This document shows, piece after piece, positions 1 to 30,970 of a DNA stretch of 64,000 nucleotides. Source of the DNA: Nannocystis pusilla (GTDB lineage: Bacteria > Myxococcota_A > Polyangia > Nannocystales > Nannocystaceae); NCBI RefSeq assembly GCF_049337375.1, contig NZ_JBMPIV010000015.1; one strand, written 5' to 3'. The notes below the pieces were generated by a model. That model searched no databases. It worked only from the letters and a program-made list of their open reading frames with translations, and was not told where the DNA came from. Within the stretch, counting starts at the first letter, position 1; every line of letters starts with the position of its first letter. The position numbers and the translations under genes are program-made.

Positions 1-450
1 TGCAACCCGGACACGAACGCGGGCTTGCCGGCCAACCTGGTCGGGCGCACCGGCCCCGATCGTGCGGCGCACCACGGCTTCAAGGCGATGCAGATCTCGG
101 CCTCGGCGCTGGCGGCCGAGGCGTTGAAGCTGACGATGCCGGCCAGCGTCTTCAGCCGCAGCACCGAATGCCACAACCAGGACAAGGTGAGCATGGGCAC
201 GATCGCGGCGCGCGACTGCCTGCGGATCGTCGAGCTGACCGAGACGGTCGCCGCGATCGGGCTGCTCACCATGTGCCAGGCGGTCGACCTGCGCGCGGGG
301 CACAACGTCCACGCGCGGGCGCGCACGCTGCACGCGGCGGTGCGCGGCGTCATCCCGATGGTCGACGCCGACCGCCGTCAGGACCGGGACATCGCGGCGG
401 TGCTGACGCTGCTGCGCGCGGGCGCGTTGCCGATCGGAGCGCTGTCGTGA
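1..450 (+). CDS. Aromatic amino-acid ammonia-lyase (HAL/PAL/TAL family), C-terminal fragment; the start lies upstream of the window
   Basis: Open frame from nt 1 with no stop. C-terminal region contains STECHNQDKVSMGTIAARD and other conserved lyase C-terminus motifs. Stop at 448-450 overlaps the next start (GTGA). Confidence 0.75.
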   Translation, partial: CNPDTNAGLPANLVGRTGPDRAAHHGFKAMQISASALAAEALKLTMPASVFSRSTECHNQDKVSMGTIAARDCLRIVELTETVAAIGLLTMCQAVDLRAGHNVHARARTLHAAVRGVIPMVDADRRQDRDIAAVLTLLRAGALPIGALS

Positions 451-851
451 GCCGGCTGCACGAGGTCTCGGTCGAGTTCGAGGTCCCGTTCCACGACGTC
501 GACATCCTCAACATCGTCTGGCACGGGCATTACTACAAGTACATGGAGTACGGCCGGACCGCGCTGATGCGCTCGCGCGGGCTCGACGTCGAGGACATCC
601 GCCGCGCGGGTTACGCCCTCCTGCTGGTCGACAGCCACTGCCGCTACACCTACCCGCTGCGCTACGCGGACCGCGCCCGCGTCGACGCGTGGTTCGTGGC
701 GGTTGCGCCGCGGCTGGTCGTGGCCTATCGCATCCGCAACCTCAAGGACGACCGCTGCTCGGCTCGCGGGCAGACGATCCTCGTCACCACCGACCAGGAA
801 GGTCGCCTCTTGCCGGAGACGCCCGATGCTCTGCTCCAGCGCCTGGTGTAG
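447..851 (+). CDS. Hotdog-fold acyl-CoA thioesterase (4HBT/YbgC-like)
   Basis: GTG start overlapping the previous stop. Sequence VSRLHEVSVEFEVPFHDVDILNIVWHGHYYKYMEYGRTALM is typical of 4HBT thioesterases. High GC3. Confidence 0.65.
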   Translation: MSRLHEVSVEFEVPFHDVDILNIVWHGHYYKYMEYGRTALMRSRGLDVEDIRRAGYALLLVDSHCRYTYPLRYADRARVDAWFVAVAPRLVVAYRIRNLKDDRCSARGQTILVTTDQEGRLLPETPDALLQRLV

Positions 852-879
852 CTCGCCATCCTCGCCCGCCCGTAAGGGC

Positions 880-1599
880 ATGTCCGTTTGGACAGGTCTT
901 TTCGCGCATGTCCTCGCGGCCATGGTCTTTCTCACCGGTCCGATCGGCCAGGCGAACGCCGCCGAGCCGCTGCCGATCACCGTGGCCGCGCCGGTGGTCG
1001 CCAGCATCACGCTCGACCAGCTGCTCGGGCAGTTCGCCGGGATGAGCGGGCTGCAGGCCAGCTTCCGCGAGGAGAAGCACATGGCGCTGCTGGCCGCGCC
1101 GCTCGTCAACGAGGGCACCATCTACTTCGTGCCGAACGGCAAGAAGCCGCGCCTGGCGCGGCACACGGCCAAGCCGGCCCGCTCGGTGGTGGTGATCGAC
1201 GGCAGCGCGCTCAAGCTGGCCGACGACGCCGGGCGCGAGGAGATCGCGCTCGACAAGAGCCCGGCGGTGCGGCTGTTCGTCGACTCGTTCGTCAAGATCT
1301 TCGCCGGCGACCGCGAGGCGCTGACGACCATGTACGCGATGGACCTGCAGGCCGACGGCCAGCGCTGGACGCTGAAGCTGAAGCCGAAGCTGGCGCCGCT
1401 CGACAAGCTGATCGAGCGGGTCGAGATCGCGGGCGACGGGGTGGTGATCGCGACGATGCGCGTGGTCGAGGTCGGCGGCGACGAGGCCGTGACCACGTTC
1501 TCGGCCGTCGACCCCAAGCGCAAGTTCTCCGCCGAGGAGCTGGGCTCGCTGTTCAGCCTGCCGCCGAAGCCGGCCGCGGCCCCGCCGGCGGCCCGCTGA
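880..1599 (+). CDS. LolA-like outer-membrane lipoprotein carrier family protein (aryl-polyene cluster type)
   Basis: N-terminal signal peptide MSVWTGLFAHVLAAMVFLTGPIGQANAA. Size and position between thioesterase and MMPL exporter match aryl-polyene/flexirubin clusters. Pro/Ala-rich C-terminal tail. Confidence 0.5.
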   Translation: MSVWTGLFAHVLAAMVFLTGPIGQANAAEPLPITVAAPVVASITLDQLLGQFAGMSGLQASFREEKHMALLAAPLVNEGTIYFVPNGKKPRLARHTAKPARSVVVIDGSALKLADDAGREEIALDKSPAVRLFVDSFVKIFAGDREALTTMYAMDLQADGQRWTLKLKPKLAPLDKLIERVEIAGDGVVIATMRVVEVGGDEAVTTFSAVDPKRKFSAEELGSLFSLPPKPAAAPPAAR

Positions 1600-1627
1600 G
1601 CGCGGCCTCCCGCTGGTCACCTGTTCC

Positions 1628-4012
1628 ATGGAACCTGCCCGATCAGACAGGCCGAGCGCGTTGCGGGCGGGCCTCGGCGCGGCGCTCGTGGCCGGGCTGG
1701 TGGCGTTCTGCGCGCTGCGCCTGCAGGTGGTCACCGACATCACCGCGTTCATGGCCGACGTCGCCGACCCCAAGCTGGCGGCGCTGTCGCGCGGGATGGC
1801 CAGCTCGGAGCTGACGCGCACCCTGGTGCTGTCGGTCTCGGACGAGCGCGGCGAGCCGGACGTGGCGATCGCCGGGGCGCAGGCGCTGGCCGATCGGCTG
1901 CAGGATCGACCGGAGGTGGCGTGGCTGCGCACCGGGCCGGGCGAGCTGCACGCCGAGGCGATCCACAACCTCTACTACCCGCGGCGGTTCTACCTCCTGG
2001 CCGACGAGGCAGCTGGCCTTCAGGACAGGTTGTCCGACGACGGACTGCGCGCGGCGGCCCGCGAGCTGCGGCGCCAGCTCGGCCTGCCGACGTCGGGGGT
2101 GATCAAGCAGATCGCGCCGGCCGACCCGCTGCTGGCCTATCCGGCCCAGCTGCGCCGGCTCGAGGCGGCCCAGGGCGGCGGGGTCGCGCTGCGCGACGGG
2201 CACTTCGTGGCCGAGGACCAGCACGCGCTGGTGATGCTGGCGACCCGCAGCTCGCCGTTCGACGCCGCCGACCAGGCGCCGCTGCAGGCCGCCATCGAGG
2301 CGGCGTTCGCCGAGGTCGACGCGCAGTCGGGCGGGCGCCTGGTGCTCGAGCAGTCGGGCGTGGCCCGCTTCGCCCTGGCGGCCGAGACCAGCATGCGCGA
2401 GGACATCGGCCGGATCTCCACGGTCTCGCTGGTCGGCATCGTCGCGCTGTTCCTGCTGATGTTCCGCTCGCCGCGGCTGGTGCTGCTGTCGCTGGCGCCG
2501 CTGGTGGCCGGCGTGGCGGCGGCGCTGGCGGCCTGCCTGGCGCTGTTCGGGGCGGTCCACGGGCTGACGCTGGCGTTCGGGGCGACGCTGATCGGCGTGT
2601 GCATCGACTACTCGGTGCACCTGTTCAACCACCACATGCTCGACCCGCGCGGCGGGCCGCGCCAGAGCGCGCGGCAGATCTGGCCGGGCCTGCTGCTCGG
2701 GGCGCTGACGACGGTGGCGGGCTTCGCCGGGCTGGCGTGGACGAGCTTTCCGGGGCTGCGCGAGGTGGCGCTGTTCGCCTCGATCGGGGTGCTGGTGGCG
2801 GCCCTGGCCACGCGCTACTGGCTACCTGACCTCTTGCCCATGGCCCCAAAGCCAGGTTGGTTGCAGCGGCGGGCCGCGGCCGGGCTGGCGCGGGTGGTCG
2901 CGGGGATGCGACGCCGGCGCTCGGCGGTGGCGGTGCTGCCGGCGGTGGCGCTGGGCCTGTGCGTGGTCGGGCTGCCGCGCATCGAGTGGTCGGACGACGT
3001 GCGGCTGCTGACGGCGCTCGACCCGGGGATGCTGGCCGAGGACGAGCGGGTGCGGACGCGGGTGTCGCGGATGGACGCGGGGCGCTTCGTGGTCGCGTTC
3101 GGGGCCGACGAGGAGGAGGCGCTGGCCGGCAACGACGCGGCGGCGGTGCGCCTGCGCGCGGCCCAGGCGGCCGGCGAGATCGAGGCGTTCCGCAGCCTGC
3201 ACGCGCTGGTGTGGTCGGCGGCGCTGCAGAAGGACAACCAGGCGGCGCTGGCCGACCCGAGCCTGCCGGCCCGGCTCGACGCGGCGTTCGTGGCCGAGGG
3301 CTTCCGCGCCGGCTCGTTCGCCAAGTTCTTCGCGGACATGTCCCATGGGCCAGACGTGATGCGGCCGGCCGACCTGGCCGCGACGCCGCTGGCCGAGGCG
3401 GCGCGGACGTTCCGGGCCGAGCTCGACGGCGGCGAGGTGGCCGTGGTGACGCTGCTGCGCGGGGTCGCCGACGCGACGGCGCTGCAGGCCCGCCTGGCCG
3501 ACCTGCCGCAGGTGCGCTACTTCGACCAGCAGGGCATGATGCAGGCGGCGTTCGGCCGCTACCGCGCGCGCACGCTCGAGCTGGTGGTGTTCGGCCTGTT
3601 CGCGGTGCTGGCGATGGTGTGGGCCCGCTACCGCCGGTTCGGGCTGGCGCTGGCGGCGTTCGCCCCGGCCGTGCTGGCGGCCGCGACGGCGCTGTCGGTG
3701 GTGGCGCTGTCGGGGGTGACGATCGGCATCCTCCACGTCGTCGCGCTGCTGCTGGTGCTCAGCATGGGGGTCGACTACGGGGTGTTCCTGGCCGAGAGCC
3801 GGCGCGACCCGGGCGGCTTCGACGCGACGGTGCTGAGCGTGCTGCTGGCGTGCCTGTCGACGGTGCTGGCGTTCGGGCTGCTGGCGATGTCGCAGAGCCC
3901 GGCGCTGCGGGCGATCGGGGTGACCGTCGGGCTCGGGGTGCTGCTCAGCCTGGTGCTGGCCCCGGCCGCCCTGGTGCTGGTCGGCGCGGGCGAGGGGAAG
4001 GAGCGCGGATGA
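1628..4012 (+). CDS. MMPL/RND-superfamily exporter (predicted exporter of aryl-polyene-type clusters)
   Basis: 794 aa with two blocks of transmembrane helices separated by large soluble loops, the MMPL architecture. High GC3 throughout. Confidence 0.7.
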   Translation: MEPARSDRPSALRAGLGAALVAGLVAFCALRLQVVTDITAFMADVADPKLAALSRGMASSELTRTLVLSVSDERGEPDVAIAGAQALADRLQDRPEVAWLRTGPGELHAEAIHNLYYPRRFYLLADEAAGLQDRLSDDGLRAAARELRRQLGLPTSGVIKQIAPADPLLAYPAQLRRLEAAQGGGVALRDGHFVAEDQHALVMLATRSSPFDAADQAPLQAAIEAAFAEVDAQSGGRLVLEQSGVARFALAAETSMREDIGRISTVSLVGIVALFLLMFRSPRLVLLSLAPLVAGVAAALAACLALFGAVHGLTLAFGATLIGVCIDYSVHLFNHHMLDPRGGPRQSARQIWPGLLLGALTTVAGFAGLAWTSFPGLREVALFASIGVLVAALATRYWLPDLLPMAPKPGWLQRRAAAGLARVVAGMRRRRSAVAVLPAVALGLCVVGLPRIEWSDDVRLLTALDPGMLAEDERVRTRVSRMDAGRFVVAFGADEEEALAGNDAAAVRLRAAQAAGEIEAFRSLHALVWSAALQKDNQAALADPSLPARLDAAFVAEGFRAGSFAKFFADMSHGPDVMRPADLAATPLAEAARTFRAELDGGEVAVVTLLRGVADATALQARLADLPQVRYFDQQGMMQAAFGRYRARTLELVVFGLFAVLAMVWARYRRFGLALAAFAPAVLAAATALSVVALSGVTIGILHVVALLLVLSMGVDYGVFLAESRRDPGGFDATVLSVLLACLSTVLAFGLLAMSQSPALRAIGVTVGLGVLLSLVLAPAALVLVGAGEGKERG

Positions 4013-10725: not shown

Positions 10726-10789
10726 GGCGTGACGCGCAGCACGGGCGGCGTTTGCATCGCGGACGGCGCCGCGCATCCCTGGAGAAGGG

Positions 10790-11644
10790 GTGGCGATGCA
10801 GGGGAGCGGCTCACACATTCGACCCGGGCGCAGGGCCGCGGCGCTCGTGGCGCTGCTCGGCTGTCACGCGCCCGAGGTCGTGGGGCTCGACGGAATGGTG
10901 CCGGACGCGGTGCCGGGGTGCGCGGGCCCGGGCGGGCGCGGGTTCGCGTTCACGGGCGGGCCGCAGGTGTTCGTGGTGCCGGAGTGCGTGACGACGCTGT
11001 CGGTCGAGCTGTGGGGCGCGCAGGGCGGGCCGAGTCGCTGTGGGATCGACGAGATCCACGGGCTGCCCGACGTGCAGATGGACGGCGGTCGCGGCGGCTG
11101 GCTGCGCGCGGAGCTGCCGGTGCGACCCGGCGAGGTGCTGCTGGTGCTGGTCGGCGGACGCGGCGGGATCGACGGGGCGCCGGGATGGAACGGAGGCGGA
11201 CGCGGCGGCGTGTGGGCCGGGGGCGGCGGCGGCGGATCGGACATCCGGATCGGCGGCGCCAGCTTGATCGATCGCGCGCTGGTGGTAGGCGGCGGAGGCG
11301 GCGGCTCGTGCGGCTTTCCGGACCACGGGGCGGGCGGCGACGGCGGGGGGCTCGTCGGCGACGACGGGATCGTGGGCGAGGACTTCTGGAGCGCGGGCGG
11401 CGGCGGCAGGCAACACGCCGGAGGCGCAGGCGGCTCGTCGCCCGGGCAGTCCGGGGTGTTCGGGCTCGGCGGCGGAGCGGCGCGCTATCACGTGGCAGGC
11501 GGCGGCGGCGGCTGGTACGGCGGCGGCGGGGCGTTCGGCGCGGGCGGTGGCGGCGGTTCGTCGCACGTGGGCGTCGATGCGGACGAGGTGGAGTTCGAAG
11601 CGGGAGCGCGTCGCGGCGACGGTGCGGTGCAGATCTACTGGTGA
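10790..11644 (+). CDS. Glycine-rich lipoprotein (ALK-like Gly-rich domain family)
   Basis: Lipobox LVALLGC. Long GGGGxGG tracts with conserved blocks ELWGAQGG, VAGGGGGWYGGGG and a C-terminal GDGAVQIYW. Paralogous to the 11929 gene. Confidence 0.65.
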   Translation: MAMQGSGSHIRPGRRAAALVALLGCHAPEVVGLDGMVPDAVPGCAGPGGRGFAFTGGPQVFVVPECVTTLSVELWGAQGGPSRCGIDEIHGLPDVQMDGGRGGWLRAELPVRPGEVLLVLVGGRGGIDGAPGWNGGGRGGVWAGGGGGGSDIRIGGASLIDRALVVGGGGGGSCGFPDHGAGGDGGGLVGDDGIVGEDFWSAGGGGRQHAGGAGGSSPGQSGVFGLGGGAARYHVAGGGGGWYGGGGAFGAGGGGGSSHVGVDADEVEFEAGARRGDGAVQIYW

Positions 11645-11928
11645 GCGCGGTCCGCTTGGCGTGACGCGGGGTGATGGTTGCGATCGCTACCACGTCGAGG
11701 CGGGCGCGCGTATGCCTCGCGGTCGACGGTCGACGACCGCGATACGTGGCGAGGATCGCCGGCGACGAGCCACGGCTGCTTCGCGGCGGTGGTGATGCGT
11801 CACGTAGTTCTTTGGGACATGTCTCGATGGACATGTGATGGGCGATCGCTCGTGACTGGCGACACAGGGGTGTTTGCGTGGATGCCTCGTGCGCATCATG
11901 CCTACAGGTCGCAGGGGAGGCCGCGCAG

Positions 11929-12966
11929 ATGGTTGTCGAGGGTCGGTGGCGTACGGTGTCGGTGATGCTCGCAATCGTGTCCGGCGGCTGCGACGAGATC
12001 ACGGATACTCGCCACCTGCGACCGGTGCCGAGCACGGTCGCCGGTGCCGGGGCCGAGGCCGACGACGCGCTGGCGCTCGAGTGCGAGGCGGAGGCGCTCG
12101 ACGTGTGCGAGGCCGAGTGCGTCGACGTCGCGAGCGACGCGCGTCACTGCGGCGGCTGCGGGCGCGTGTGCGCCGGCACGTGCGCGGCGGGCTACTGCGA
12201 GGCGCAGTGCGGGCCCGGCCAGATCCGCTGCGACGGTCGCTGCGTCGACCGCACGCGCGTGACGCCCGACGGGAGCGCGCGCGAGTTCGAATTTACCGGG
12301 GCGCCGGAGACGTTCGTGGTGCCCGAGTGCGTGTCGCGGCTCACCGTCGAGCTGTGGGGCGCGCAGGGCGGCGGTTCGCGCTGCTGCGACGGGCTCGAGC
12401 AAGCGGACGGAGGGCTCGGCGCCTACGTGCGGGCGGAGCTCGAGGTGGAGCCCGGCGAGGCGCTGCAGATCCGCGTCGGCGGGCGCGGCGGAATCGAGGG
12501 CGCGGCGGGCTACAACGGCGGCGGCCTCGGCGGCGCGTTCGCGGGCGGCGGCGGTGGAGCCAGCGACGTGCGCCAGGGCGGCGGGACGCTCGACGACCGG
12601 ATCTTCGTCGCGGCCGGCGGCGGGGGCGGGCAGTGCGGCTGCCCGGACCACGGCGCAGGCGGCCCGGGCGGGCTTGCGATCGGCGGCCCCGGGGTGGCGC
12701 TGCTGCCCGAGTGGCACGCGGCCGGCGGCGGGACGCAGAGCCACGGCGGGGCCGAGGGCTCGACGCCCGGCGAGGCGGGCGGGTTCGGTGAGGGCGGAGG
12801 CGGCGGGGTCTACCACGTGGCGGGCGGCGGAGGCGGCTGGTTCGGCGGCGGCTCGGCCCACGCGGCGGGCGGGGGCGGCGGGTCGTCGCGCCTCGGCGCC
12901 GACCCGGACGGCAGCGGGCTGCCGGCGGTGCGCGAGGGCGACGGGCTGGTGCGGATCCGCTGGTGA
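11929..12966 (+). CDS. Glycine-rich lipoprotein paralog with N-terminal Cys-rich repeats
   Basis: Lipobox-like AIVSGGC. Cys-rich region CEAECVDVASDARHCGGCGRVCAGTCAAGYCEAQCGPGQIRCDGRC. Shares the same conserved blocks as 10790-11644 (ELWGAQGG, VAGGGGGWFGGG, GDGLVRIRW). Confidence 0.65.
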   Translation: MVVEGRWRTVSVMLAIVSGGCDEITDTRHLRPVPSTVAGAGAEADDALALECEAEALDVCEAECVDVASDARHCGGCGRVCAGTCAAGYCEAQCGPGQIRCDGRCVDRTRVTPDGSAREFEFTGAPETFVVPECVSRLTVELWGAQGGGSRCCDGLEQADGGLGAYVRAELEVEPGEALQIRVGGRGGIEGAAGYNGGGLGGAFAGGGGGASDVRQGGGTLDDRIFVAAGGGGGQCGCPDHGAGGPGGLAIGGPGVALLPEWHAAGGGTQSHGGAEGSTPGEAGGFGEGGGGGVYHVAGGGGGWFGGGSAHAAGGGGGSSRLGADPDGSGLPAVREGDGLVRIRW

Positions 12967-16928: not shown

Positions 16929-18263
16929 TCAGCGCGCCAGCAGGGCCCGGCGCAGCACGCTCGGGTGGAACAGGTCGCGGCTCGGGCGCATCAGGTGCAG
17001 GACCTCGATCAGGCGCAGGTAGAGCTCGGGCGAGCGGGTGGCGGCGGCGAAGATCCGGTCGACGAAGCGGTGCATGAGCTTGAGGCCGGGCGAGACCTTG
17101 CCGGTGGTGCCCGGCCAGCGCAGGTCGTCGCTGCTGGCGGTCATGAAGGCGGCGAGGTTGCCGGCGGCGAGGCGCTTCTGGAAGCGCAGGCCGAGCGGCT
17201 CGTGCGGGCGCGCGCGCAGGGCGGCGTCGAGGACCGTGGCGGCGACGGCGGCGACGCTCATGCCCTGGCCGTAGACGGGGTTGAGGGCGCAGGCGGCGTC
17301 GCCGAGGACGACGAAGCCGTCGGGCCAGCGGCGCAGGCGCTCGTAGTGGCGCAGGCGGTTCTCGGTCCTGCGATAGCCGTGGATGGCGGAGCAGGGCGTG
17401 GCGCCGACCAGGACTTCGCGCAGGGCGGGGGTCTCGAGCGCGCCGGCGAACTCGAGGAAGCCGGCCTCGTCGACCGGCGGGAACACGCCGCCGTAGCCGA
17501 CGAGGGTGACGATGTGACGCCCGCCCTCGACCGGGTAGACGACGCCGCCGCGCGGGTTCTTGCCCGGCTTGCCCATGGCGTAGAGGACCTTCCAGTCGGG
17601 TCGGGCGCGCAGCTCGTAGAGGCGGGTGGCGTAGCCGAGCTGGGCGTCGATGATGGTCTCGGGCGGCTCGGGATAGCCGAGCGCGGCCAGCCAGGTCGGG
17701 GCCTTGGAGGCGCGCCCGCCGGCGTCGACGACGAGGTCGGCGCGCAGCTCGTCGGCCGCGAGCTCGGGCGCGCCGGCGCGGCGGTGGACCTGGACGCCGA
17801 CGATCCGCTCGCCGGCCGCCTGCAAGCCGGTGACCTCGAGGCCGGAGTGGATGCGCACGCGCTCGTCGGCGACGAGGGCGGCGCGCACCTGGTACTCGAG
17901 CAGGCCGCGGGTGCAGGCGCGCGAGCGCAGCGGCGAGGGGACCCGCGGGGCCTGACCGAAGGGGGTGTGCCAGGCGACGTCGTCGAGCCAGTCGATCTCG
18001 TGGGCGCCCGCGGCCGCGAGGGCGTCGCCGAGGCCGGGGAACTGCTCGCTCAAGATCTTCCAGCCGCGCGTCAACAGGACGTGGACGTGGTGGCTCTGCG
18101 GCGCGCCGGCGCGCGGCTCGGGCCCGGCCGGCAAGCTGTCGCGATCGAGGAGAGTGACGCGCTCGAAGTGACGCGTGAGCACGCGGGCGGCGAGGAGGCC
18201 GGCGATCCCGGCGCCGATCACGATCGCGCGGCGAGGCGCCGACGCGGAGCCTGTTGTGGGCAT
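16929..18263 (-). CDS. FAD-dependent monooxygenase/oxidoreductase
   Basis: N-terminal Rossmann motif RRAIVIGAGIAGLLAARVL. 444 aa. DG and GD FAD-binding motifs (VDAGG, VVLGDAA). Confidence 0.75.
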   Translation of the reverse strand: MPTTGSASAPRRAIVIGAGIAGLLAARVLTRHFERVTLLDRDSLPAGPEPRAGAPQSHHVHVLLTRGWKILSEQFPGLGDALAAAGAHEIDWLDDVAWHTPFGQAPRVPSPLRSRACTRGLLEYQVRAALVADERVRIHSGLEVTGLQAAGERIVGVQVHRRAGAPELAADELRADLVVDAGGRASKAPTWLAALGYPEPPETIIDAQLGYATRLYELRARPDWKVLYAMGKPGKNPRGGVVYPVEGGRHIVTLVGYGGVFPPVDEAGFLEFAGALETPALREVLVGATPCSAIHGYRRTENRLRHYERLRRWPDGFVVLGDAACALNPVYGQGMSVAAVAATVLDAALRARPHEPLGLRFQKRLAAGNLAAFMTASSDDLRWPGTTGKVSPGLKLMHRFVDRIFAAATRSPELYLRLIEVLHLMRPSRDLFHPSVLRRALLAR

Positions 18264-18589
18264 GGCGGAGTGATACGACAGCGCGGCCACGGCCGGAAGC
18301 GGGCCCGCACGCAGGCGGGGCGCGCGATCGCTCGCGCCCCGTGCCAGGCTGGTCGAAGAGACAGGTCGGGCGGGGCCGGGCGGCGCTGCCCCGAGCGGGC
18401 GCCGGTGGCCGCCGGAACGGCGTGCTCGGCCGCGGCCCGAGGGGAAGGCGAGCTGACCGAAGGGACATGTCCGGGGCGGTCTGCAGCGGCGGGGTGCGCG
18501 GCGGAGGTCGGCGAGGGCGATCGCCGGCCGGGCGATCGAGGCTGGCCGAAGAGACATGTCGCGGCGGCTGCGGCGGCGAGGCGGGTGAG

Positions 18590-18830: not shown

Positions 18831-19062
18831 TGACGCGGTTCGACGGGTAGGCGGTGGCTGGCTGAAGGGACAGGTTCGGCGCGGGCGCCGGGGTCGGTCC
18901 ATTATTAGATGTCCGAAGGGACATGTCGTCGCGGGCGACGCGGCGATCGGTGACACGCGAAAGGAGGTGATCGCAATCGCAGGTGTGGGATTGACGAGCC
19001 CACGAGCTTCCGCACGAGCGCTCGCCTTGACCGCTCCAGAGGCCGCGTGTATCCCCAAATCG

Positions 19063-19137
19063 ATGCTCCGGCGCGCCACCACCGCGACTACTACCACCAC
19101 CCTTCCGGGTGGGGTCGGTCGCGTGCGCGTGCGCTGA
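19063..19137 (+). promoter_or_regulatory. Thr-codon-rich leader peptide (MLRRATTATTTTTLPGGVGRVRVR), part of a putative transcription attenuator
   Basis: 24-codon ORF with 7 Thr codons (ACC/ACT) within 9 positions. It lies in a lower-GC leader about 110 nt upstream of the ThrRS-like gene. Confidence 0.55.
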
Positions 19138-19164
19138 GAGCTCTCGAGACACACGCCCTGCGAA

Positions 19165-19190
19165 GCCCCGCCCGAGCCGGCGGGGCTTTT
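19165..19190 (+). terminator. Intrinsic terminator/attenuator hairpin downstream of the Thr leader peptide
   Basis: GCCCCGCC cgagcc GGCGGGGC followed by TTTTG, between the leader stop (19137) and the thrS-like ATG (19249). Confidence 0.55.
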
Positions 19191-19248
19191 GCGCGCATGG
19201 TGGCGTCGCTCCGTCCGGCCGGTCCTTTCACCCCCGGAGACCGCCGCC

Positions 19249-20469
19249 ATGAGCCACGACATCAGCCCCCACTCCGTCCTCGACGCCCACGACCACCGCG
19301 CCCTCGGCCCTCGCCTCGGCCTGTTCCACCTGCAGGAAGAGGCGCCGGCGATGGTGTTCTGGCACCCCCGCGGCCTGGTCCTCGCCCGCGCGCTGGAAGA
19401 CGCGGCCCGCCGCCGCGCCAGCGCCGACGGCTATCACGAGGTCCGCACGCCGCAATTGCTGCGACAGCCGATCTGGGAGAAGAGCGGCCACTGGCAGCAC
19501 TTCCGTCAGGGAATGTTCGCAGTCGCCGACGAGGGCTGCTGCGCGGCGCTGAAGCCGGTGAGCTGCCCGGGTCACATCCAGATCGCCCAGCGCAGCGCGC
19601 TGTCGTACCGCGACCTGCCGCTGCGCCTGTGCGAGTTCGGCCTGTGCCACCGCGACGAGCCGAGCGGGACGCTGCACGGGCTGTTCCGCCTGCGCCAGTT
19701 CACGCAGGACGACGGCCACGTGTTCTGCGCTCCCGACCAGATCGCGGCCGAGATCGTGCGCTTCTGCCAGGGCGCCCGCAGGTTCTATGCGGGCTTCGGG
19801 TTCGATGACTTCGCGGTCGGGCTGTCGACGCGCCCGCCCGAGCGGGTCGGCGACGATGCGCTGTGGGACCGCGCGGAGGCGGAACTGGCTGCGGCGGCCC
19901 GCGAGGCGGGGCTCGATTACGTGGTGCAGCCGGGCGAAGGGGCGTTCTACGGGCCGAAGCTCGAGTTCTCGCTGCGCGACCGCCTCGGCCGGTCGTGGCA
20001 GTGCGGGACGATCCAGCTCGACTTCAACCTGCCGGAGCGCTTCGGGCTGCATTACATCGACGAGGCCGGCCAGCGCCGCCGCCCGGCGATGCTGCACCGG
20101 GCGATCTACGGCAGCCTCGAGCGCTTCCTGGCGATCGTGCTCGAGCACCACGCAGGCGCGCTGCCGGCCTGGCTGGCGCCCGTGCAAGTGGTGGTGGCGC
20201 CGGTGGGCCCGGCCCAGCAAGCGGCGGCGGAGGCGGCCGTGGCCGAGCTGCGCGCGGCGGGGATCCGGGTCGAGCTCGACGACCGCCGCGAGACGCTGGC
20301 CCGCCGCGTGGCGGAGGCGCACGCGCAAGGAGTGCCGATGCTGGCGGTAATCGGGGCGCGCGAGGCGAGCAGCGAGGCGCTGACGCTGCGGATCCGCGAG
20401 GAGCAGCAGGTGCTGCCGCGGGCTCAGGCGGTGGCGCAGATCGCGAGGCATTGCGCGCCGCCGGTGTGA
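19249..20469 (+). CDS. thrS: Threonine--tRNA ligase paralog, N-terminally truncated (catalytic core plus anticodon-binding domain only)
   Basis: Class II motifs match ThrRS: SCPGHIQ, LCHRDEPSGTLHGLFRLRQFTQDDGHVFC, HRAIYGSLERFLAIVLEHHAGALPAWLAPVQVVVAPV. Zn ligands Cys/His/His are conserved. 406 aa, against about 640 for full-length ThrRS; the TGS and editing domains are absent. Confidence 0.85.
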   Translation: MSHDISPHSVLDAHDHRALGPRLGLFHLQEEAPAMVFWHPRGLVLARALEDAARRRASADGYHEVRTPQLLRQPIWEKSGHWQHFRQGMFAVADEGCCAALKPVSCPGHIQIAQRSALSYRDLPLRLCEFGLCHRDEPSGTLHGLFRLRQFTQDDGHVFCAPDQIAAEIVRFCQGARRFYAGFGFDDFAVGLSTRPPERVGDDALWDRAEAELAAAAREAGLDYVVQPGEGAFYGPKLEFSLRDRLGRSWQCGTIQLDFNLPERFGLHYIDEAGQRRRPAMLHRAIYGSLERFLAIVLEHHAGALPAWLAPVQVVVAPVGPAQQAAAEAAVAELRAAGIRVELDDRRETLARRVAEAHAQGVPMLAVIGAREASSEALTLRIREEQQVLPRAQAVAQIARHCAPPV

Positions 20470-20982
20470 ACGGGCCCGACCTTCAAGAGCGGTGCGCGGG
20501 TCGCTCGGCGCGAGGCCAGCGCGATTCATCGCAGGCGGCGGCCGATTCATGCGAGTGATGGGAATCGTCGACTCGTCGTTCGAGTCGCTACCGGTAGCGA
20601 GCGCTCGCGCCGGGATCCGTCGATTCGCAAATGCACCGAGGAGGCGGCGAGCACGGGAGCTCGCCGCATGGGTCGTCGGTGTTTCGGCTGCGAACGGCAC
20701 GGCGGGATCGGGTGGTCGTCGCCGAGGGACTCGAGTGTCGAGAAACGCGACGCGGTGTTTCAAATTCGACAGCCGCGCGGAGGCGAGGGAGATCGCCCGG
20801 GCCGCGTGCGGCGGAGGTGGGGCGTCCGGGCCGCCGGCGGGCGCGAGAGACGGGCTCGCTGCGCGGCTGGGGGGCCGTAGCCGCGGGTCTGGCTCCGGGC
20901 GGCGGGCGAAGGCGCGCGTCGCGCTCCGGGCCATCTGCCACTCGTCGGCGGGACCGTGGTGAGCGACAGTCGGGCCCCCGGC

Positions 20983-22053
20983 ATGTCCGTAAACGTTCCC
21001 AAGCCCATCACCGCGCTCGAGGCGCTGGAGCGTGCGCAGTGGATCGCGTTCGCCCCGTTCGTGTTCCAGGCCACCCGCGTGCTGCGCGACCGCGGGATCC
21101 TCCTCGCCATCGAGCGCAGCCGCGAGGGCCTCACCCTCGAGGAGGTCGCGGCGGCGGCGGAGTTGCCGATCTACGGCACGCGCGTGGTGCTCGAGGCGGG
21201 GCTCGGGATCGGGCTCGTGACCGAGGTCGACGGCCGCTATCGCATCACCAAGACCGGCGTGTACGTGCAGCACGATCCGATGACGCGCGCCAACTTCGAC
21301 TTCGTGCGCGACGTGAACTACCACGGGATCGCGGGGCTCGACGCGGCGGTGGCGTCGGGCAAGCCGGAGGGGCTCAAGGTGTTCGGCGAGTGGCCGACGG
21401 TCTACGCCGGGCTGTCGCAATTGCCGGAGTCGGTGCGAAAGTCGTGGTTCCAGTTCGACCACTACTATTCCGACGGGGCGTTCGGCGCGGCGCTGCCGCT
21501 GGTGTTCGCGGGCAAGCCGAAGCGGCTGCTCGACATCGGCGGCAACACGGGCAAGTGGGCGGCGGCGTGCATGCGGCACGACCCCGACGTCGAGGTGACG
21601 CTGATGGACCTGCCGGGGCAGCTCCGCAACGCCGAGCAGAACCTGCGCGAGGCGGGGCTGCTGGCGCGGGCGCGCTTCCACGAGGCCGACCTGCTCGACG
21701 AACGCTCGCCGGTCCCGACCGACTTCGACGCGATCTGGATGAGCCAGTTCCTCGACTGCTTCTCCGAGGCCGAGATCGTGTCGATCCTGCGCCGCTGCGT
21801 CGCCGCGGCCGGGCCGAATTGCAAGATCTACATCCTCGAGGCGTTCTGGGACCGCCAGCGCTTCGAGGCCGCCAGCTTCTGCCTGCAGATGACGTCGCTG
21901 TACTTCACGGCGGTCGCCAACGGCACCAGCCAGATGTACCGCTCGACGACGTTCCTCGCGTGCGTCCACGCGGCCGGCCTCGAGATCGAGCGCGAGTACG
22001 ACGACCTCGGGGTCAGCCACACGCTGCTGGTGTGCCGCCCGCGACCGATGTGA
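20983..22053 (+). CDS. Class I SAM-dependent O-methyltransferase (natural-product type with N-terminal dimerisation domain)
   Basis: SAM-binding motif LLDIGGNTGKWAAAC with a downstream acidic motif. 356 aa. Typical small-molecule OMT architecture. Confidence 0.75.
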   Translation: MSVNVPKPITALEALERAQWIAFAPFVFQATRVLRDRGILLAIERSREGLTLEEVAAAAELPIYGTRVVLEAGLGIGLVTEVDGRYRITKTGVYVQHDPMTRANFDFVRDVNYHGIAGLDAAVASGKPEGLKVFGEWPTVYAGLSQLPESVRKSWFQFDHYYSDGAFGAALPLVFAGKPKRLLDIGGNTGKWAAACMRHDPDVEVTLMDLPGQLRNAEQNLREAGLLARARFHEADLLDERSPVPTDFDAIWMSQFLDCFSEAEIVSILRRCVAAAGPNCKIYILEAFWDRQRFEAASFCLQMTSLYFTAVANGTSQMYRSTTFLACVHAAGLEIEREYDDLGVSHTLLVCRPRPM

Positions 22054-22152
22054 CGCGCGCACGCGTGGGCTCGGCCCGCGGGTGAGGACGGGCGCCGCGT
22101 CCGATCGACGACCGCGGCGCCGCGGCGTGGGGCCGCGGTACGTTGACCGTGG

Positions 22153-23445
22153 ATGGTCGTCGCCGTGCTCGCGCTGCTGGCCGCCCCGGTCGTGACGCCG
22201 GGGCAGGACGCTCACTACCGGCTCGACAACGGGCTCGAGGTGATCCTCCGCCACGACCGACGCACACCGCTGGTGGCGGTGCGGCTGCGGGTCCACGCGG
22301 GCAGCGTCGACGATCCGCGCGATCGCAGCGGGCTGGCCCACGTGGTCGAGCACGTGGCGCACGAGGGTTCGGCGCACGTCGATCGCAACCGGCGCGAGGG
22401 CCTCGAGTACGCGCTGTCGGCCCACGCGAACAACGCGGAGACAGGGTTTTATGCCACCGAGTATTATTATACGGCGCCGGCGCAGGCGACCGAGCACGTG
22501 CTGTGGATCGAGGCCGATCGCCTCGGCTTCGTGCGCGGGCAGCACGGCGCGCCGACGCTGGCGGGCGTGCGACGGATCGTGCTCAACGAGCGGCGCCAGC
22601 GGGCCGAGCAAGATCCGCTGGCGCGGCTCGAGATCCAGGCGCTGACCGCGTTGTTCCCCACGGGGCACCCGTATCACGGGGCGATCATCGGCAGCGCCGA
22701 CGACCTGGCGGCGGCGACGATCGCCGACGTCGACGCGTTCCTCGATCGATGGGTGCATCCGGGCAACGCGACGCTGGTGCTGGTCGGCGATCTGCCGGCG
22801 GAGACGCCTGGGTGGATCGAGCGGCAATTCGGCGGCCTGCCGGCGCAGCCGCGACCGCCGGCGCGCACGGTGCCGCCGGTGAGGCGAGCGACCGAGCTGC
22901 GCGTGACGGCCGAACGAGCGGTGGGGGCGGCGCCTGCCGTGCTGATGGCCTGGCCGTCGCCGGCGCTCGACGGCGACGGCGACGCGACCGCCGACGTGCT
23001 GGCAGAGGCGCTGGAGCGCGGCGGATATGTCCGGCTGGCGCGCGCGGAGGGTCCGCCGGAGGCGGCCGAATTTCAGGCGACGCAGCGCAGTCTGCCGAAT
23101 CAGTCGGTGTTCTTCGTGCGGGTGATCGGCCGCGTCGGCGGCGATCCGGGGCGCCTCGTGGCAGAGGTCGATCGCGTGCTGGCTCGCGTGGCCGAGGGAG
23201 CGCTGGCGGAGCCGGCCGTGCGACGCGCCCGCTTGCGGATCGCGCGGGAGCATCGCAGCGTACAGCAAGACCTGCAGGACCGTGCGGCCCTGCTGGCGGC
23301 GGAGGCGGCCGCCGGGAAGCCGCTCGGTGGGGCGCAGGACGTCGCGGAGTGGATGGCGGTGACGCCCGCGGAGGTGGCTCGCTTCGCGCGCGAGGTGCTG
23401 CGGCCGGAAGGACGCGTGGCGGTGTTGGCGGAGGGGGAAGGATGA
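22153..23445 (+). CDS. M16 family zinc peptidase (catalytic subunit, inverted HxxEH motif)
   Basis: AHVVEHVAHEG zinc-binding motif and downstream E. Confidence 0.8.
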   Translation: MVVAVLALLAAPVVTPGQDAHYRLDNGLEVILRHDRRTPLVAVRLRVHAGSVDDPRDRSGLAHVVEHVAHEGSAHVDRNRREGLEYALSAHANNAETGFYATEYYYTAPAQATEHVLWIEADRLGFVRGQHGAPTLAGVRRIVLNERRQRAEQDPLARLEIQALTALFPTGHPYHGAIIGSADDLAAATIADVDAFLDRWVHPGNATLVLVGDLPAETPGWIERQFGGLPAQPRPPARTVPPVRRATELRVTAERAVGAAPAVLMAWPSPALDGDGDATADVLAEALERGGYVRLARAEGPPEAAEFQATQRSLPNQSVFFVRVIGRVGGDPGRLVAEVDRVLARVAEGALAEPAVRRARLRIAREHRSVQQDLQDRAALLAAEAAAGKPLGGAQDVAEWMAVTPAEVARFAREVLRPEGRVAVLAEGEG

Positions 23446-24791
23446 GGCGCGGAGGCGTCACGAGGGCGTGGTTGCTGGCGTGGCTCCTCGGCGCGTGCGC
23501 GAGCAATCAGTCGTGGCGGCACACTGCGCCGGAGCTACCGGTGGCGGCGCCGCCGGTGGTCGCGCCGCGGATCGAGCGGCTGGGGCCGTCGCTGCTGCAC
23601 GTGGGGCGGGCGGGGCCGACGACGGCGATCGGGCTGGTCTTGCGGACAGGTGCGGAGATCGATCCGCCGCTGGCGAGCTTCACCCTCGAGCTGCTGGCCC
23701 GCGGGCCCGATCGGGCCGTCGAGGACGCGCTCGGCGAGCTCGGCGGGGCGATCGAGGTGGTGTGGCTCGGAGACGGGGCGCTGCTGCGGGTCGAGGTCGA
23801 GGCGTCGGCGTGGCGCGAGGCGCTGGCGATCGTGACTGCGGCGCTGCGCGGCGCGGAGCTCACGGCGGAGGACGTCGAGGCGCTGCGGCGCGAGCGGCTG
23901 GCGGCCCAGCAGCGGCGCGACGGCGATCCGGCGAGGCGGGGGCTGCACTTGCTGCAGCGCCGCCTGGCCCCGCGGCTCGACGCGCTCGGGGAGGCGCGCG
24001 CGACCGCGGGCTATACGATCGAACATGTCCGAAAAGCGCAGGAGCAGTGGCTGCGGGCCCGGCCGGCGCTGGTGGTCGTCGGGGAGGCGCCGCGGGCCGA
24101 GCTCGCGCGGGCGGCCGCGGGGGCGCTGGGCGAGTGGCCGGGGTCGTCCGACATGCCCGCGCCCGCGCCCGAGCTTGCGACGGCGCGCCGCGAGGTGCTG
24201 GTGGTGCCGCGACCGGGGCTGGCCCAGACTGCCATCGTGGTGGGTCGAGCGATCGCCGGCGACGCCGACGACCTCGCGCTCGAGCTGGCGTCGGCCGTGG
24301 TCGGCTCGGCCCTGCGCGAGGTGCTTCGGCGCGATCGCGGCGACACGTACAGCGTGGCGGTGAGCCACGCGCCGGTCCGGGGCGGCGGAATGCTGGCGAT
24401 CGAGACCCAGGTCGACGCGGCCGCCACCGGTTCGTCGCTGCGGGCCATGCTCTCGCAGCTGAAGGCGGCGCAGGGCCGCTTCTTGACCGGAGACGTGCTG
24501 CGCCTGCTCGGCCGCGCGTTCCAGGTCGAGCGCATGCTGGAGCACCAGCGACTTGCCGCCGTCATCGAGGCGGTGGCGCGGCTGCAGGTGGCGGGGCGGC
24601 CCGACGACGCCCTGGCGGCCGAGCTGCGCCGGCTCGGGGGCGTGCGCGACGACGACGTCGAGCGCGCGCTGGCGCGGTGGTTCGAGCCGGCAGCGATGCA
24701 GGTGGTGCTGGTCGGCGATCCCGCGACGATCCGCGCCCAGGTCGAGCCGCTCGGGCTCGGGCCGCTCAAGGTGATCGACGACGGGATCTGA
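23442..24791 (+). CDS. M16 family peptidase, lipoprotein, probably the non-catalytic partner subunit
   Basis: ATGA overlap with the preceding M16 gene. Lipobox LLGAC. M16 fold features without the HxxEH motif. Confidence 0.7.
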   Translation: MRRGGVTRAWLLAWLLGACASNQSWRHTAPELPVAAPPVVAPRIERLGPSLLHVGRAGPTTAIGLVLRTGAEIDPPLASFTLELLARGPDRAVEDALGELGGAIEVVWLGDGALLRVEVEASAWREALAIVTAALRGAELTAEDVEALRRERLAAQQRRDGDPARRGLHLLQRRLAPRLDALGEARATAGYTIEHVRKAQEQWLRARPALVVVGEAPRAELARAAAGALGEWPGSSDMPAPAPELATARREVLVVPRPGLAQTAIVVGRAIAGDADDLALELASAVVGSALREVLRRDRGDTYSVAVSHAPVRGGGMLAIETQVDAAATGSSLRAMLSQLKAAQGRFLTGDVLRLLGRAFQVERMLEHQRLAAVIEAVARLQVAGRPDDALAAELRRLGGVRDDDVERALARWFEPAAMQVVLVGDPATIRAQVEPLGLGPLKVIDDGI

Positions 24792-30243: not shown

Positions 30244-30867
30244 ATGGGCACCTGGGACGATGGCCTCTACGACAACGACTCCGCGCTCGACCTCGTCGGC
30301 AGCCTGGTGAAGCTGCCCGCGATCGACGCCCCGCCGGTCGCGCTGGCGGTGGGCATCGGCCTGGTCGCGTGGCTGCAACCGGTGGTGCTGAAGCTGCGCG
30401 GGGCGGACCACGTGGCCGCCGCGCTGGCGCACGGCGAGGCGCTGCCGGCGGACGCGCGCGAGGTGCTGGCCGGGCTCGCGCGCGATCTCGAGGGCGCGCT
30501 CGAGGGTCGCTCGCGCAGCGCGGCCGCGGAGGCGGTGATCGGCGGCTACAACGACGGCCCGCGGTTCGACGCGCTGCTGCGCGTGCCCGGCGGGCAGGCG
30601 AGCATCGACGCCCTGGGCGAGCGCGCGGGCGCGGTCCTCGATCGCGCCGACGACGGCGATCTTTACGAGGGCGCGGGCGACTACGGGGCGCTCGGTCTCG
30701 TCGTCGAGCTGGTCGACGCCGGTCTGTGGAAGCCTGCGCCGGAGCGCGTGGTCGCGTGGCAGGGTCGCTTCGACCGCGCCGACGCGGGCACGCCCGACGA
30801 GCGGGACTTCTGGGACAGCTACGCCGCGCGCGTGCGCCGGGGCTTCGAGCTCGTCCTGCGCGCGTGA
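30244..30867 (+). CDS. DUF4259 domain protein
   Basis: N-terminus [21 protein letters not shown] is the DUF4259 signature. 207 aa. Confidence 0.55.
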
Positions 30868-30970
30868 GCGCGCCTCTCGCGATCGTGAGGCGCGGCCGCG
30901 GGGCTGCCGTCGCGCTGCGTCGACTCGTATGCTCGGGGCCCGCGACGTCCGCCGTCGCGACAGGAGCCCC

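Follow-up and report, generated by a model that had tools for sequence, protein, structure and literature searches.

A short threonyl-tRNA synthetase gene without editing domains and its candidate threonine-codon attenuator in Nannocystis pusilla

We analyzed a stretch of 64,000 nucleotides (nt) of Nannocystis pusilla DNA (assembly GCF_049337375.1, contig NZ_JBMPIV010000015.1), referred to below in its full length as the window, and document here the anatomy and conservation of a cassette built around a short gene for threonyl-tRNA synthetase (ThrRS), together with the alternative RNA folds predicted for its leader. The functional unit is best explained as a one-gene cassette that consists of a promoter, a Thr-codon leader, alternative hairpins, a hairpin at the ribosome-binding site (RBS), and the short thrS. 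It probably supplies an editing-less ThrRS that is induced by a shortage of charged tRNA-Thr via attenuation at the Thr-codon leader. In the proposed mechanism the promoter would fire straight into a short open reading frame (ORF) rich in Thr codons. If charged tRNA-Thr is plentiful, the ribosome would reach the leader stop codon and cover element 2 of the leader RNA; with element 2 covered, elements 3 and 4 would form a terminator and transcription would end before thrS. If charged tRNA-Thr is scarce, the ribosome would stall at the leader Thr codons and thereby free element 2 (GGGUGGGG) to pair with element 3 (CCCCGCC), so that no terminator forms and the short thrS is transcribed; we infer that such read-through takes place in vivo. 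The product, a ThrRS catalytic core with its anticodon-binding domain and without editing, would raise the capacity for charging tRNA-Thr and would therefore close a negative feedback loop.

Genes were delimited by frame analysis of G+C content at third codon positions (GC3), followed by Pfam and NCBIfam scans. An earlier note on this DNA had described a truncated ThrRS of 406 amino acids (aa) with intact catalytic residues and without the TGS and editing domains, and this description is borne out by domain scans, alignment, and tblastn. The Pfam scan detected the tRNA-synt_2b and HGTP_anticodon domains, the latter being the C-terminal anticodon-binding domain (PF03129, 63.8 bits). The protein passes the whole-protein threshold of TIGR00418 with 456.7 bits (curated cutoff 383.65), the match being restricted to model positions 170-548 of 565. 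When the protein was aligned with solved structures, residues 14-384 corresponded to residues 242-612 of Escherichia coli ThrRS, and thus its natural start coincides with the start of the engineered delta-N enzyme; overall it is equivalent to E. coli residues 242-642. The engineered E. coli delta-N ThrRS, residues 242-642, is active (constructs: PMC11252418). The Zn ligands C334, H385, and H511 and the motif 2 and motif 3 arginines R363 and R520 (E. coli numbering) are retained in the window protein. Among 117 family members C334, H385, H511, R363, and Y462 are invariant, and R520 is found in 116. The invariant residues suggest that the short ThrRS is an active ThrRS core. A tblastn search with 27 N-terminal domains of full-length ThrRS found no coding sequence for a TGS or editing domain in the 64-kb window, and the same query set found none for the N-terminal domains near any short thrS locus.

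The attenuator that the earlier note had placed upstream of thrS is present as a leader ORF and a downstream hairpin followed by TTTT (Table 1). Seven of eight consecutive codons of the leader ORF, at 19078-19101, are Thr codons (ACC or ACT), and across loci the leader ORF has about 24 codons with 5-9 for Thr. Such a Thr-run ORF lies upstream of the short thrS at 29 of 30 loci and upstream of none of seven full-length thrS genes. Under a stricter definition 28 of 32 short-thrS loci have one, the background rate being 0.0019 per 350 nt. The promoter-like hexamers end 7 nt 5' of the leader ATG (19063) and the leader ORF has no Shine-Dalgarno (SD) sequence, which implies a leaderless or nearly leaderless mRNA; the leader peptide is thus probably translated from a leaderless message. 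The arrangement TTGAC-N16-18-TAnnnY with a start codon 6-9 nt downstream recurs at 14 of 33 loci, Burkholderia and Caballeronia included. A generic sigma-70 scan did not call the promoter at 19027-19055, because TATCCC matches at only three of six positions.

Element 2 of the leader has two possible pairing partners, the Thr codons at 19093-19102 or element 3 at 19165-19174, the latter pairing giving an antiterminator. In the free leader RNAfold paired the Thr codons with GGGUGGGG and the terminator hairpin was present. When the leader was masked up to 19100-19105 in imitation of a stalled ribosome, CGGGUGGGGU (19106-19115) and 19165-19174 formed a 10-bp antiterminator and the terminator disappeared; masking to 19107 or beyond, as if the ribosome had moved on, restored it. 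In an alignment of 22 leaders the conserved blocks are the Thr run and three complementary elements (GGCGGG/CCCGCC/GGCGGG). Of these 22 loci, 17-21 retain the terminator core pairs and 19-21 those of the antiterminator. Thermodynamic prediction and conservation thus point to a mutually exclusive antiterminator and terminator, predicted to be chosen by ribosome position. Clear T runs follow the hairpin in the Burkholderia arboris orthologue (six T) and in one further locus (L091). The leader matches no Rfam family, the threonine operon leader RF00506 included, at E-values up to 10.

The thrS translation start also lies in predicted hairpins. The mean probability that the SD sequence is unpaired is 0.15 over 29 loci, and the anti-SD sequence CUCCGU is conserved out to Burkholderia and is complementary to GGCGGGG in the 3' arm of the terminator. 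This complementarity suggests that occlusion of the SD sequence may regulate thrS a second time, at translation. When pairing probabilities were compared, the SD sequence was more open in the stalled state at 9 of the 29 loci, the window not among them, and the candidate mechanism in which the freed terminator arm 4 opens the RBS through CUCCGU was set aside.

Table 1. Features of the thrS cassette and the genes downstream of it in the window
Feature	Coordinates	Strand	Description
Promoter-like sequence	19027..19055	+	TTGACC-17 nt-TATCCC; read from sequence
Leader ORF	19063..19137	+	MLRRATTATTTTTLPGGVGRVRVR, then stop; about 24 codons
Element 2	19106..19115	+	CGGGTGGGGT; within leader ORF
Terminator-like hairpin	19163..19190	+	AAGCCCCGCC-CGAGCC-GGCGGGGCTT, then TT, four T in all
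SD/start-codon hairpins	19195..19251	+	Predicted fold: CGGAG with CUCCG; thrS AUG CGCCGCCAUG with CAUGGUGGCG
Short thrS	19249..20469	+	406 aa; catalytic core and anticodon-binding domain; without TGS and editing domains
Intergenic spacer	20470..20982		513 bp; outside thrS cassette
O-methyltransferase, FlxJ type	20983..22053	+	S-adenosylmethionine-dependent; Pfam Dimerisation2-like and Methyltransf_2
M16a peptidase	22153..23445	+	Catalytic; HVVEH at residue 63; hydrophobic N-terminus
M16b	23442..24791	+	Non-catalytic partner; no HxxEH; lipoprotein-type signal LLGAC

In a genome scan the window ThrRS is 99% identical to the protein of N. pusilla Na p29 and 94-95% identical to those of N. exedens and N. 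punicea; a lookup of its exact sequence gave no match. The best 120 database homologues all share the architecture of two C-terminal domains, with lengths of about 370-430 aa in nearly every case (exceptions: one of 300 aa and one of 473 aa). Named homologues at 60-65% identity come from Sorangium, Myxococcus, Corallococcus, Pyxidicoccus, Stigmatella, Melittangium, and Archangium. In the myxobacterial matches of the genome scan every stop-to-stop frame is too short for a full-length enzyme; the betaproteobacterial and alphaproteobacterial matches at about 50% identity are 635-660 aa long. A leader of the same kind also precedes divergent short ThrRS genes (47-50% identity) on contigs of 50% and 60% G+C, and the cassette of Thr leader and short thrS was seen in Myxococcota, Burkholderiaceae, Acidobacteriota, and Alphaproteobacteria. 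Among plasmids, tblastn located short copies on three replicons of the Burkholderiaceae, namely pM7012, a conjugative plasmid of 582 kb from Burkholderia sp. M701 (annotated thrS, 402 aa), a 3.5-Mb replicon of B. arboris, and a 2-Mb megaplasmid of Caballeronia. All three carry the Thr-run leader and a CCCCGCCGGAAACGGACGGGG hairpin, which in B. arboris is the one that precedes the six T. The B. arboris protein as query returned solely two-domain proteins of about 395-450 aa, whose hosts are a patchy assortment (B. vietnamiensis, B. ubonensis, B. pseudomultivorans, Paraburkholderia xenovorans, Trinickia, Caballeronia, Inquilinus, and Acidiphilium), the distribution being patchy within Burkholderia and Paraburkholderia as well. 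A neighbour-joining (NJ) tree places all leader-bearing short ThrRS sequences in one group, separate from the full-length Burkholderiales enzymes. Plasmid location, patchy spread, and the separate clade argue for an extra copy in the Burkholderiaceae, and the short ThrRS most likely is a copy that has spread horizontally and acts as an auxiliary to a canonical full-length ThrRS. By analogy with the Burkholderiaceae, the same would hold for Nannocystis.

ThrRS genes of other kinds were also seen. Many more ThrRS sequences of about 400-430 aa, at 40-47% identity, are dispersed among the full-length sequences in the tree (representative-library entries P0262, P0273, P0339, P0349, P0352, P0354, P0357, P0360, P0380, P0381, and others); these could have been truncated independently in other lineages, or could be fragments of genes. 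The ThrRS query matched 566 Klebsiella plasmid records. The one Klebsiella plasmid examined, K. pneumoniae pBio30, carries a full-length thrS that adjoins genes for a metal ABC transporter, an M14 peptidase, a dihydroorotase, and hemB. A full-length thrS on a Pantoea soli plasmid adjoins folE2, dksA, a dihydroorotase gene, and hemB, and the thrS of a Thioclava plasmid is likewise full-length and lies amid metal-stress genes. These plasmid regions resemble islands of zinc-starvation paralogues and stand apart from the short family.

Several observations weigh against an auxiliary enzyme controlled by attenuation. The NJ tree that separates the short ThrRS carries no bootstrap support values, and no full-length thrS was found for any Nannocystis or other myxobacterial genome by representative-library search or by cluster-name lookups, among whose hits no Myxococcota name occurs. 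The terminator has four U only, a run too short for a strict terminator scan, which missed it; in several orthologues the U tract is lacking altogether, and hence control may be partly translational. For each of the three helices (antiterminator, terminator, 1:2 hairpin) many shuffles matched the covariation counts; the paired cores are nearly invariant, and covariation is therefore uninformative. An editing-less enzyme made under Thr shortage should also mischarge Ser, a cost that the proposed mechanism leaves unexplained.

That no full-length gene was found bears on another reading, in which the short ThrRS is the sole ThrRS of Nannocystis, and perhaps of the Myxococcota, and the attenuator provides housekeeping feedback as for E. 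coli pheST. The presence of the family in many myxobacterial genera and a TIGR00418 score above the curated thrS cutoff would fit this reading as well. We consider it improbable, since the same clade is plasmid-borne or patchy in the Burkholderiaceae and order-level relatives carry a full-length thrS. We take Myxococcus, Sorangium, and Anaeromyxobacter to have canonical full-length thrS entries, too. Moreover, PMC4787780 argues that selection disfavours a sole ThrRS without editing in free-living bacteria. A further reading would make the cassette an inducible resistance device, with the short ThrRS as an inhibitor-insensitive isoform that is induced once a ThrRS inhibitor, such as borrelidin or obafluorin, lowers the supply of charged tRNA-Thr. 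The precedent would be the indolmycin-resistant trpRS1 of Streptomyces coelicolor, another gene behind a leader-peptide attenuator. Such a device would be one form of the attenuation reading and not a different mechanism: the attenuator would answer any fall in charging, and the role would suit a mobile cassette that is carried on a plasmid and has a patchy distribution in soil bacteria, which face antibiotic producers as competitors. We nevertheless regard it as rather unlikely. The obafluorin resistance of ObaO is due to G463S, which also lowers borrelidin sensitivity (PMC11252418), and this only validated determinant is absent here, 116 of the 117 family members, the window protein included, having Gly at the position. 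L489M, the other of the two ObaO-specific changes, occurs in 12 of 117 members but confers no resistance alone (PMC11252418). ObaO is, moreover, a full-length enzyme (637 aa), the literature searched gave no tie between loss of the N-terminal domains and resistance, and no biosynthetic cluster is conserved beside the short thrS. The earlier note had offered antibiotic self-resistance as a candidate role; a self-resistance gene of the ObaO/BorO/MupM type finds no support in either the known determinant or the neighbourhood.

The same note had joined the short thrS to the three genes downstream of it, an O-methyltransferase gene and a pair of M16 peptidase genes, and had taken co-conservation in relatives as one of the points on which such a four-gene module turns. 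This comparison was made, and the neighbours are not co-conserved. In the module reading all four genes would share a natural-product or peptide pathway, to which the short ThrRS would contribute self-resistance or an aminoacyl donor or ligase; the genes are indeed adjacent and on the same strand in four Nannocystis sequences, and genes of aryl-polyene type are scattered through the window. The gene order, however, is confined to N. pusilla, N. exedens, N. punicea, and a metagenomic contig at 95% identity. Contigs with a thrS of 79% and 73% identity have other genes on both flanks, and adjacency is lost in every other lineage: in a Nannocystis metagenome-assembled genome (thrS at 73% identity) the methyltransferase and M16 genes are absent within 6 kb, and clustering of all neighbouring ORFs at 29 loci gave no neighbour family that is common beyond genus level. 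Moreover, thrS has a promoter and an attenuator of its own, a separate conserved region lies upstream of the methyltransferase gene, and the spacer between the two varies in length and holds a 2.4-kb foreign insert in N. pusilla Na p29. A 67%-identical methyltransferase homologue lies in an MMPL-MTase-halogenase-DUF3261-ApeP-KR-KS cluster of the aryl-polyene type, which has neither thrS nor M16 genes. The M16 proteins, by their predicted signals, are exported, and the short ThrRS has kept its anticodon-binding domain. Taken together these points make a joint pathway very improbable. The idea of an amino-acid:carrier-protein ligase derived from the synthetase was tried and rejected, because the domain that binds tRNA is not lost and control would depend on tRNA-Thr charging; nor does the gene have a conserved neighbour, where such a ligase would adjoin a carrier protein. 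Of the stress- or inhibitor-responsive module that had been proposed, what stands is a short ThrRS that probably responds to a shortage of charged tRNA-Thr, as its intact active site and conserved attenuator indicate; its extension to the methyltransferase and M16 genes falls away. We concluded that the methyltransferase and the exported M16 pair are unrelated neighbours of the one-gene thrS cassette.

The methyltransferase scores 491.6 bits against the FlxJ family NF053543, below the cutoff of 560, and is thus a near-member; it is 60-88% identical to proteins of Enhygromyxa, Solimonas, and others. Three genes at positions 1-4012 of the window look like the end of a cluster of aryl-polyene/flexirubin type: one for an aromatic amino-acid lyase is truncated at the window edge, and the others encode a LolA-like and an MMPL protein. 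A halogenase-like flavoprotein is encoded at 16929-18400 on the minus strand, just upstream of thrS. The methyltransferase and halogenase-like partners usual for such a cluster are 13-17 kb distant from it and flank the thrS cassette, as though the cluster had been broken up. No gene for a polyketide synthase or a nonribosomal peptide synthetase was found in the window. Because of the near-FlxJ score, the homologue in an aryl-polyene-type cluster, and the aryl-polyene-type genes in the window, the methyltransferase appears to be of natural-product type, with a putative role in a pigment-type pathway (aryl-polyene/flexirubin tailoring). Its natural-product character had been read correctly in the earlier note; the link to thrS had not, given the pigment-type pathway and the lack of conserved adjacency.

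A catalytic and a non-catalytic M16 protein had also been predicted, and this pairing is real: HVVEH occurs in M16a alone, and the ATG of M16b overlaps the M16a stop codon (ATGA), so the two genes are translationally coupled. With HxxEH in one subunit only and coupled genes, the pair has the features of a heterodimeric M16B peptidase as judged from sequence. A PqqF/PqqL-like role in removal of a leader peptide fares poorly, since M16a scores 37 bits against the PqqF model TIGR02110 (cutoff 320) and the export signals predicted at both M16 N-termini argue against leader-peptide processing in the cytoplasm.

The spacer between thrS and the methyltransferase gene had been called an odd, lower-GC stretch of about 510 bp. 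The length is right; the low G+C content is wrong, because the 73.3% G+C of the spacer equals the window mean (73%), with 69% in its 5' half and 78% in its 3' half. The lower-GC stretch is the methyltransferase gene, at 69.4%. The spacer is 513, 516, 582, 1244, or 2465 bp long depending on the strain. Its 3' portion of about 240 nt (20741-20982, 78% G+C) is highly conserved upstream of the methyltransferase gene among Nannocystis species and the preceding 270 nt are not; the variable 5' half is the insertion point in other strains. Small ORFs or small RNAs, for which inspection of 20470-20980 had been advised, were looked for and none was seen: there is no GC3 coding frame, no Rfam match, and a fold z-score (-1.07) no better than that of shuffles. 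The 2.4-kb insert of Na p29, absent from the window, sits where the window has about 20470-20740, has a lower G+C content (66%), and contains ORFs for an AAA-type ATPase-like and an HNH nuclease-like protein (a Septu-like defence pair), apparently frameshifted. N. punicea has a different filling of 1.2 kb at the same site, and the spacer looks like an insertion hot spot.

Elsewhere in the window, 30539-33466 encodes a 975-aa protein with the shoulder and repeat domains of the major vault protein and a Band 7/SPFH domain, and the gene is followed by one for a radical SAM enzyme (33627-34955). Two adjacent genes at 10733-11644 and 11839-12966 encode products with the ALK/LTK glycine-rich domain (PF12810), familiar above all from receptor kinases of animals.

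Textbooks credit the editing domain of ThrRS with telling Ser from Thr. A natural ThrRS that lacks editing and would be made exactly when Thr-tRNA is scarce raises the question of fidelity under starvation, and its conservation over several phyla and its plasmid location in at least one host sharpen that question. It is possible, though we hold it doubtful, that these enzymes form a horizontally mobile, editing-less ThrRS class that is switched on when ribosomes stall at Thr codons and that benefits from the missing domains. Translation might then be sustained in Thr shortage while Ser-for-Thr substitution is tolerated, as a programmed relaxation of fidelity; alternatively, the short enzyme might be spared by an inhibitor, or by a kind of inactivation, for which the N-terminal domains of the housekeeping ThrRS are the point of attack. 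Apart from this question, the cassette adds one more gene to the short list of synthetase genes under cognate-codon leader peptides, and its leader contains an RNA element that is not in Rfam. It also gives a caution for genome mining: here a duplicate 'target' gene that adjoins genes for tailoring and proteolysis does not mark a resistance-guided biosynthetic cluster.

The cassette combines two known kinds of system, an auxiliary synthetase and a cognate-codon attenuator; the literature searched gave no account of a Thr-leader/short-thrS cassette, a truncated ThrRS, or a thrS leader peptide. Bacillus subtilis thrZ is reportedly a silent second ThrRS gene that is induced by Thr starvation or by depletion of ThrS. 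Like the short thrS, it is a second ThrRS gene triggered by low charging of tRNA-Thr through an antitermination leader. Its sensor, however, is a T-box RNA that reads uncharged tRNA and its product is a full-length, editing-competent enzyme, whereas the short-thrS cassette has a translated Thr-codon leader peptide as the presumed sensor and an enzyme without the N-terminal domains. In Streptomyces coelicolor, trpRS1 is said to encode an auxiliary, indolmycin-resistant tryptophanyl-tRNA synthetase controlled by ribosome-mediated attenuation at a leader peptide. Both trpRS1 and E. coli pheST with its leader pheM resemble the cassette in that the leader peptide controlling a synthetase gene is rich in codons for the amino acid of that synthetase. 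The trpRS1 system differs in amino acid and enzyme class and has, unlike the short ThrRS, a demonstrated resistance phenotype; pheST encodes the sole housekeeping enzyme, for another amino acid. The E. coli thrL leader (RF00506) shares the Thr-codon-rich leader peptide and the alternative terminator and antiterminator hairpins, but it is gammaproteobacterial, also contains Ile codons, controls threonine biosynthesis genes, and belongs to an Rfam family that the cassette leader does not match.

The enzyme itself can be compared with three groups of ThrRS. Anabaena ThrRS T2 and the zinc-starvation ThrRS paralogues (PMC4787780, PMC2770081) are likewise stress-induced duplicates with weakened editing, but they are full-length and zinc-regulated, whereas the short family is truncated and would sense Thr codons. 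ObaO and BorO (10.1101/704981; PMC11252418) each stand as a second ThrRS beside the housekeeping enzyme, as the short thrS would, judging from the Burkholderiaceae; ObaO is full-length, lies inside an antibiotic gene cluster, and is resistant via G463S, none of which holds for the short ThrRS. The closest likeness in architecture, a catalytic core with an anticodon-binding domain, is found in E. coli delta-N ThrRS (PDB 1EVK/1EVL), yeast mitochondrial ThrRS (a distant match to the short ThrRS, 253 bits), and crenarchaeal ThrRS-cat. The delta-N enzyme is a laboratory construct, the yeast enzyme is organellar, and ThrRS-cat is one half of a split archaeal enzyme, whereas the short thrS is a natural and probably regulated bacterial gene.

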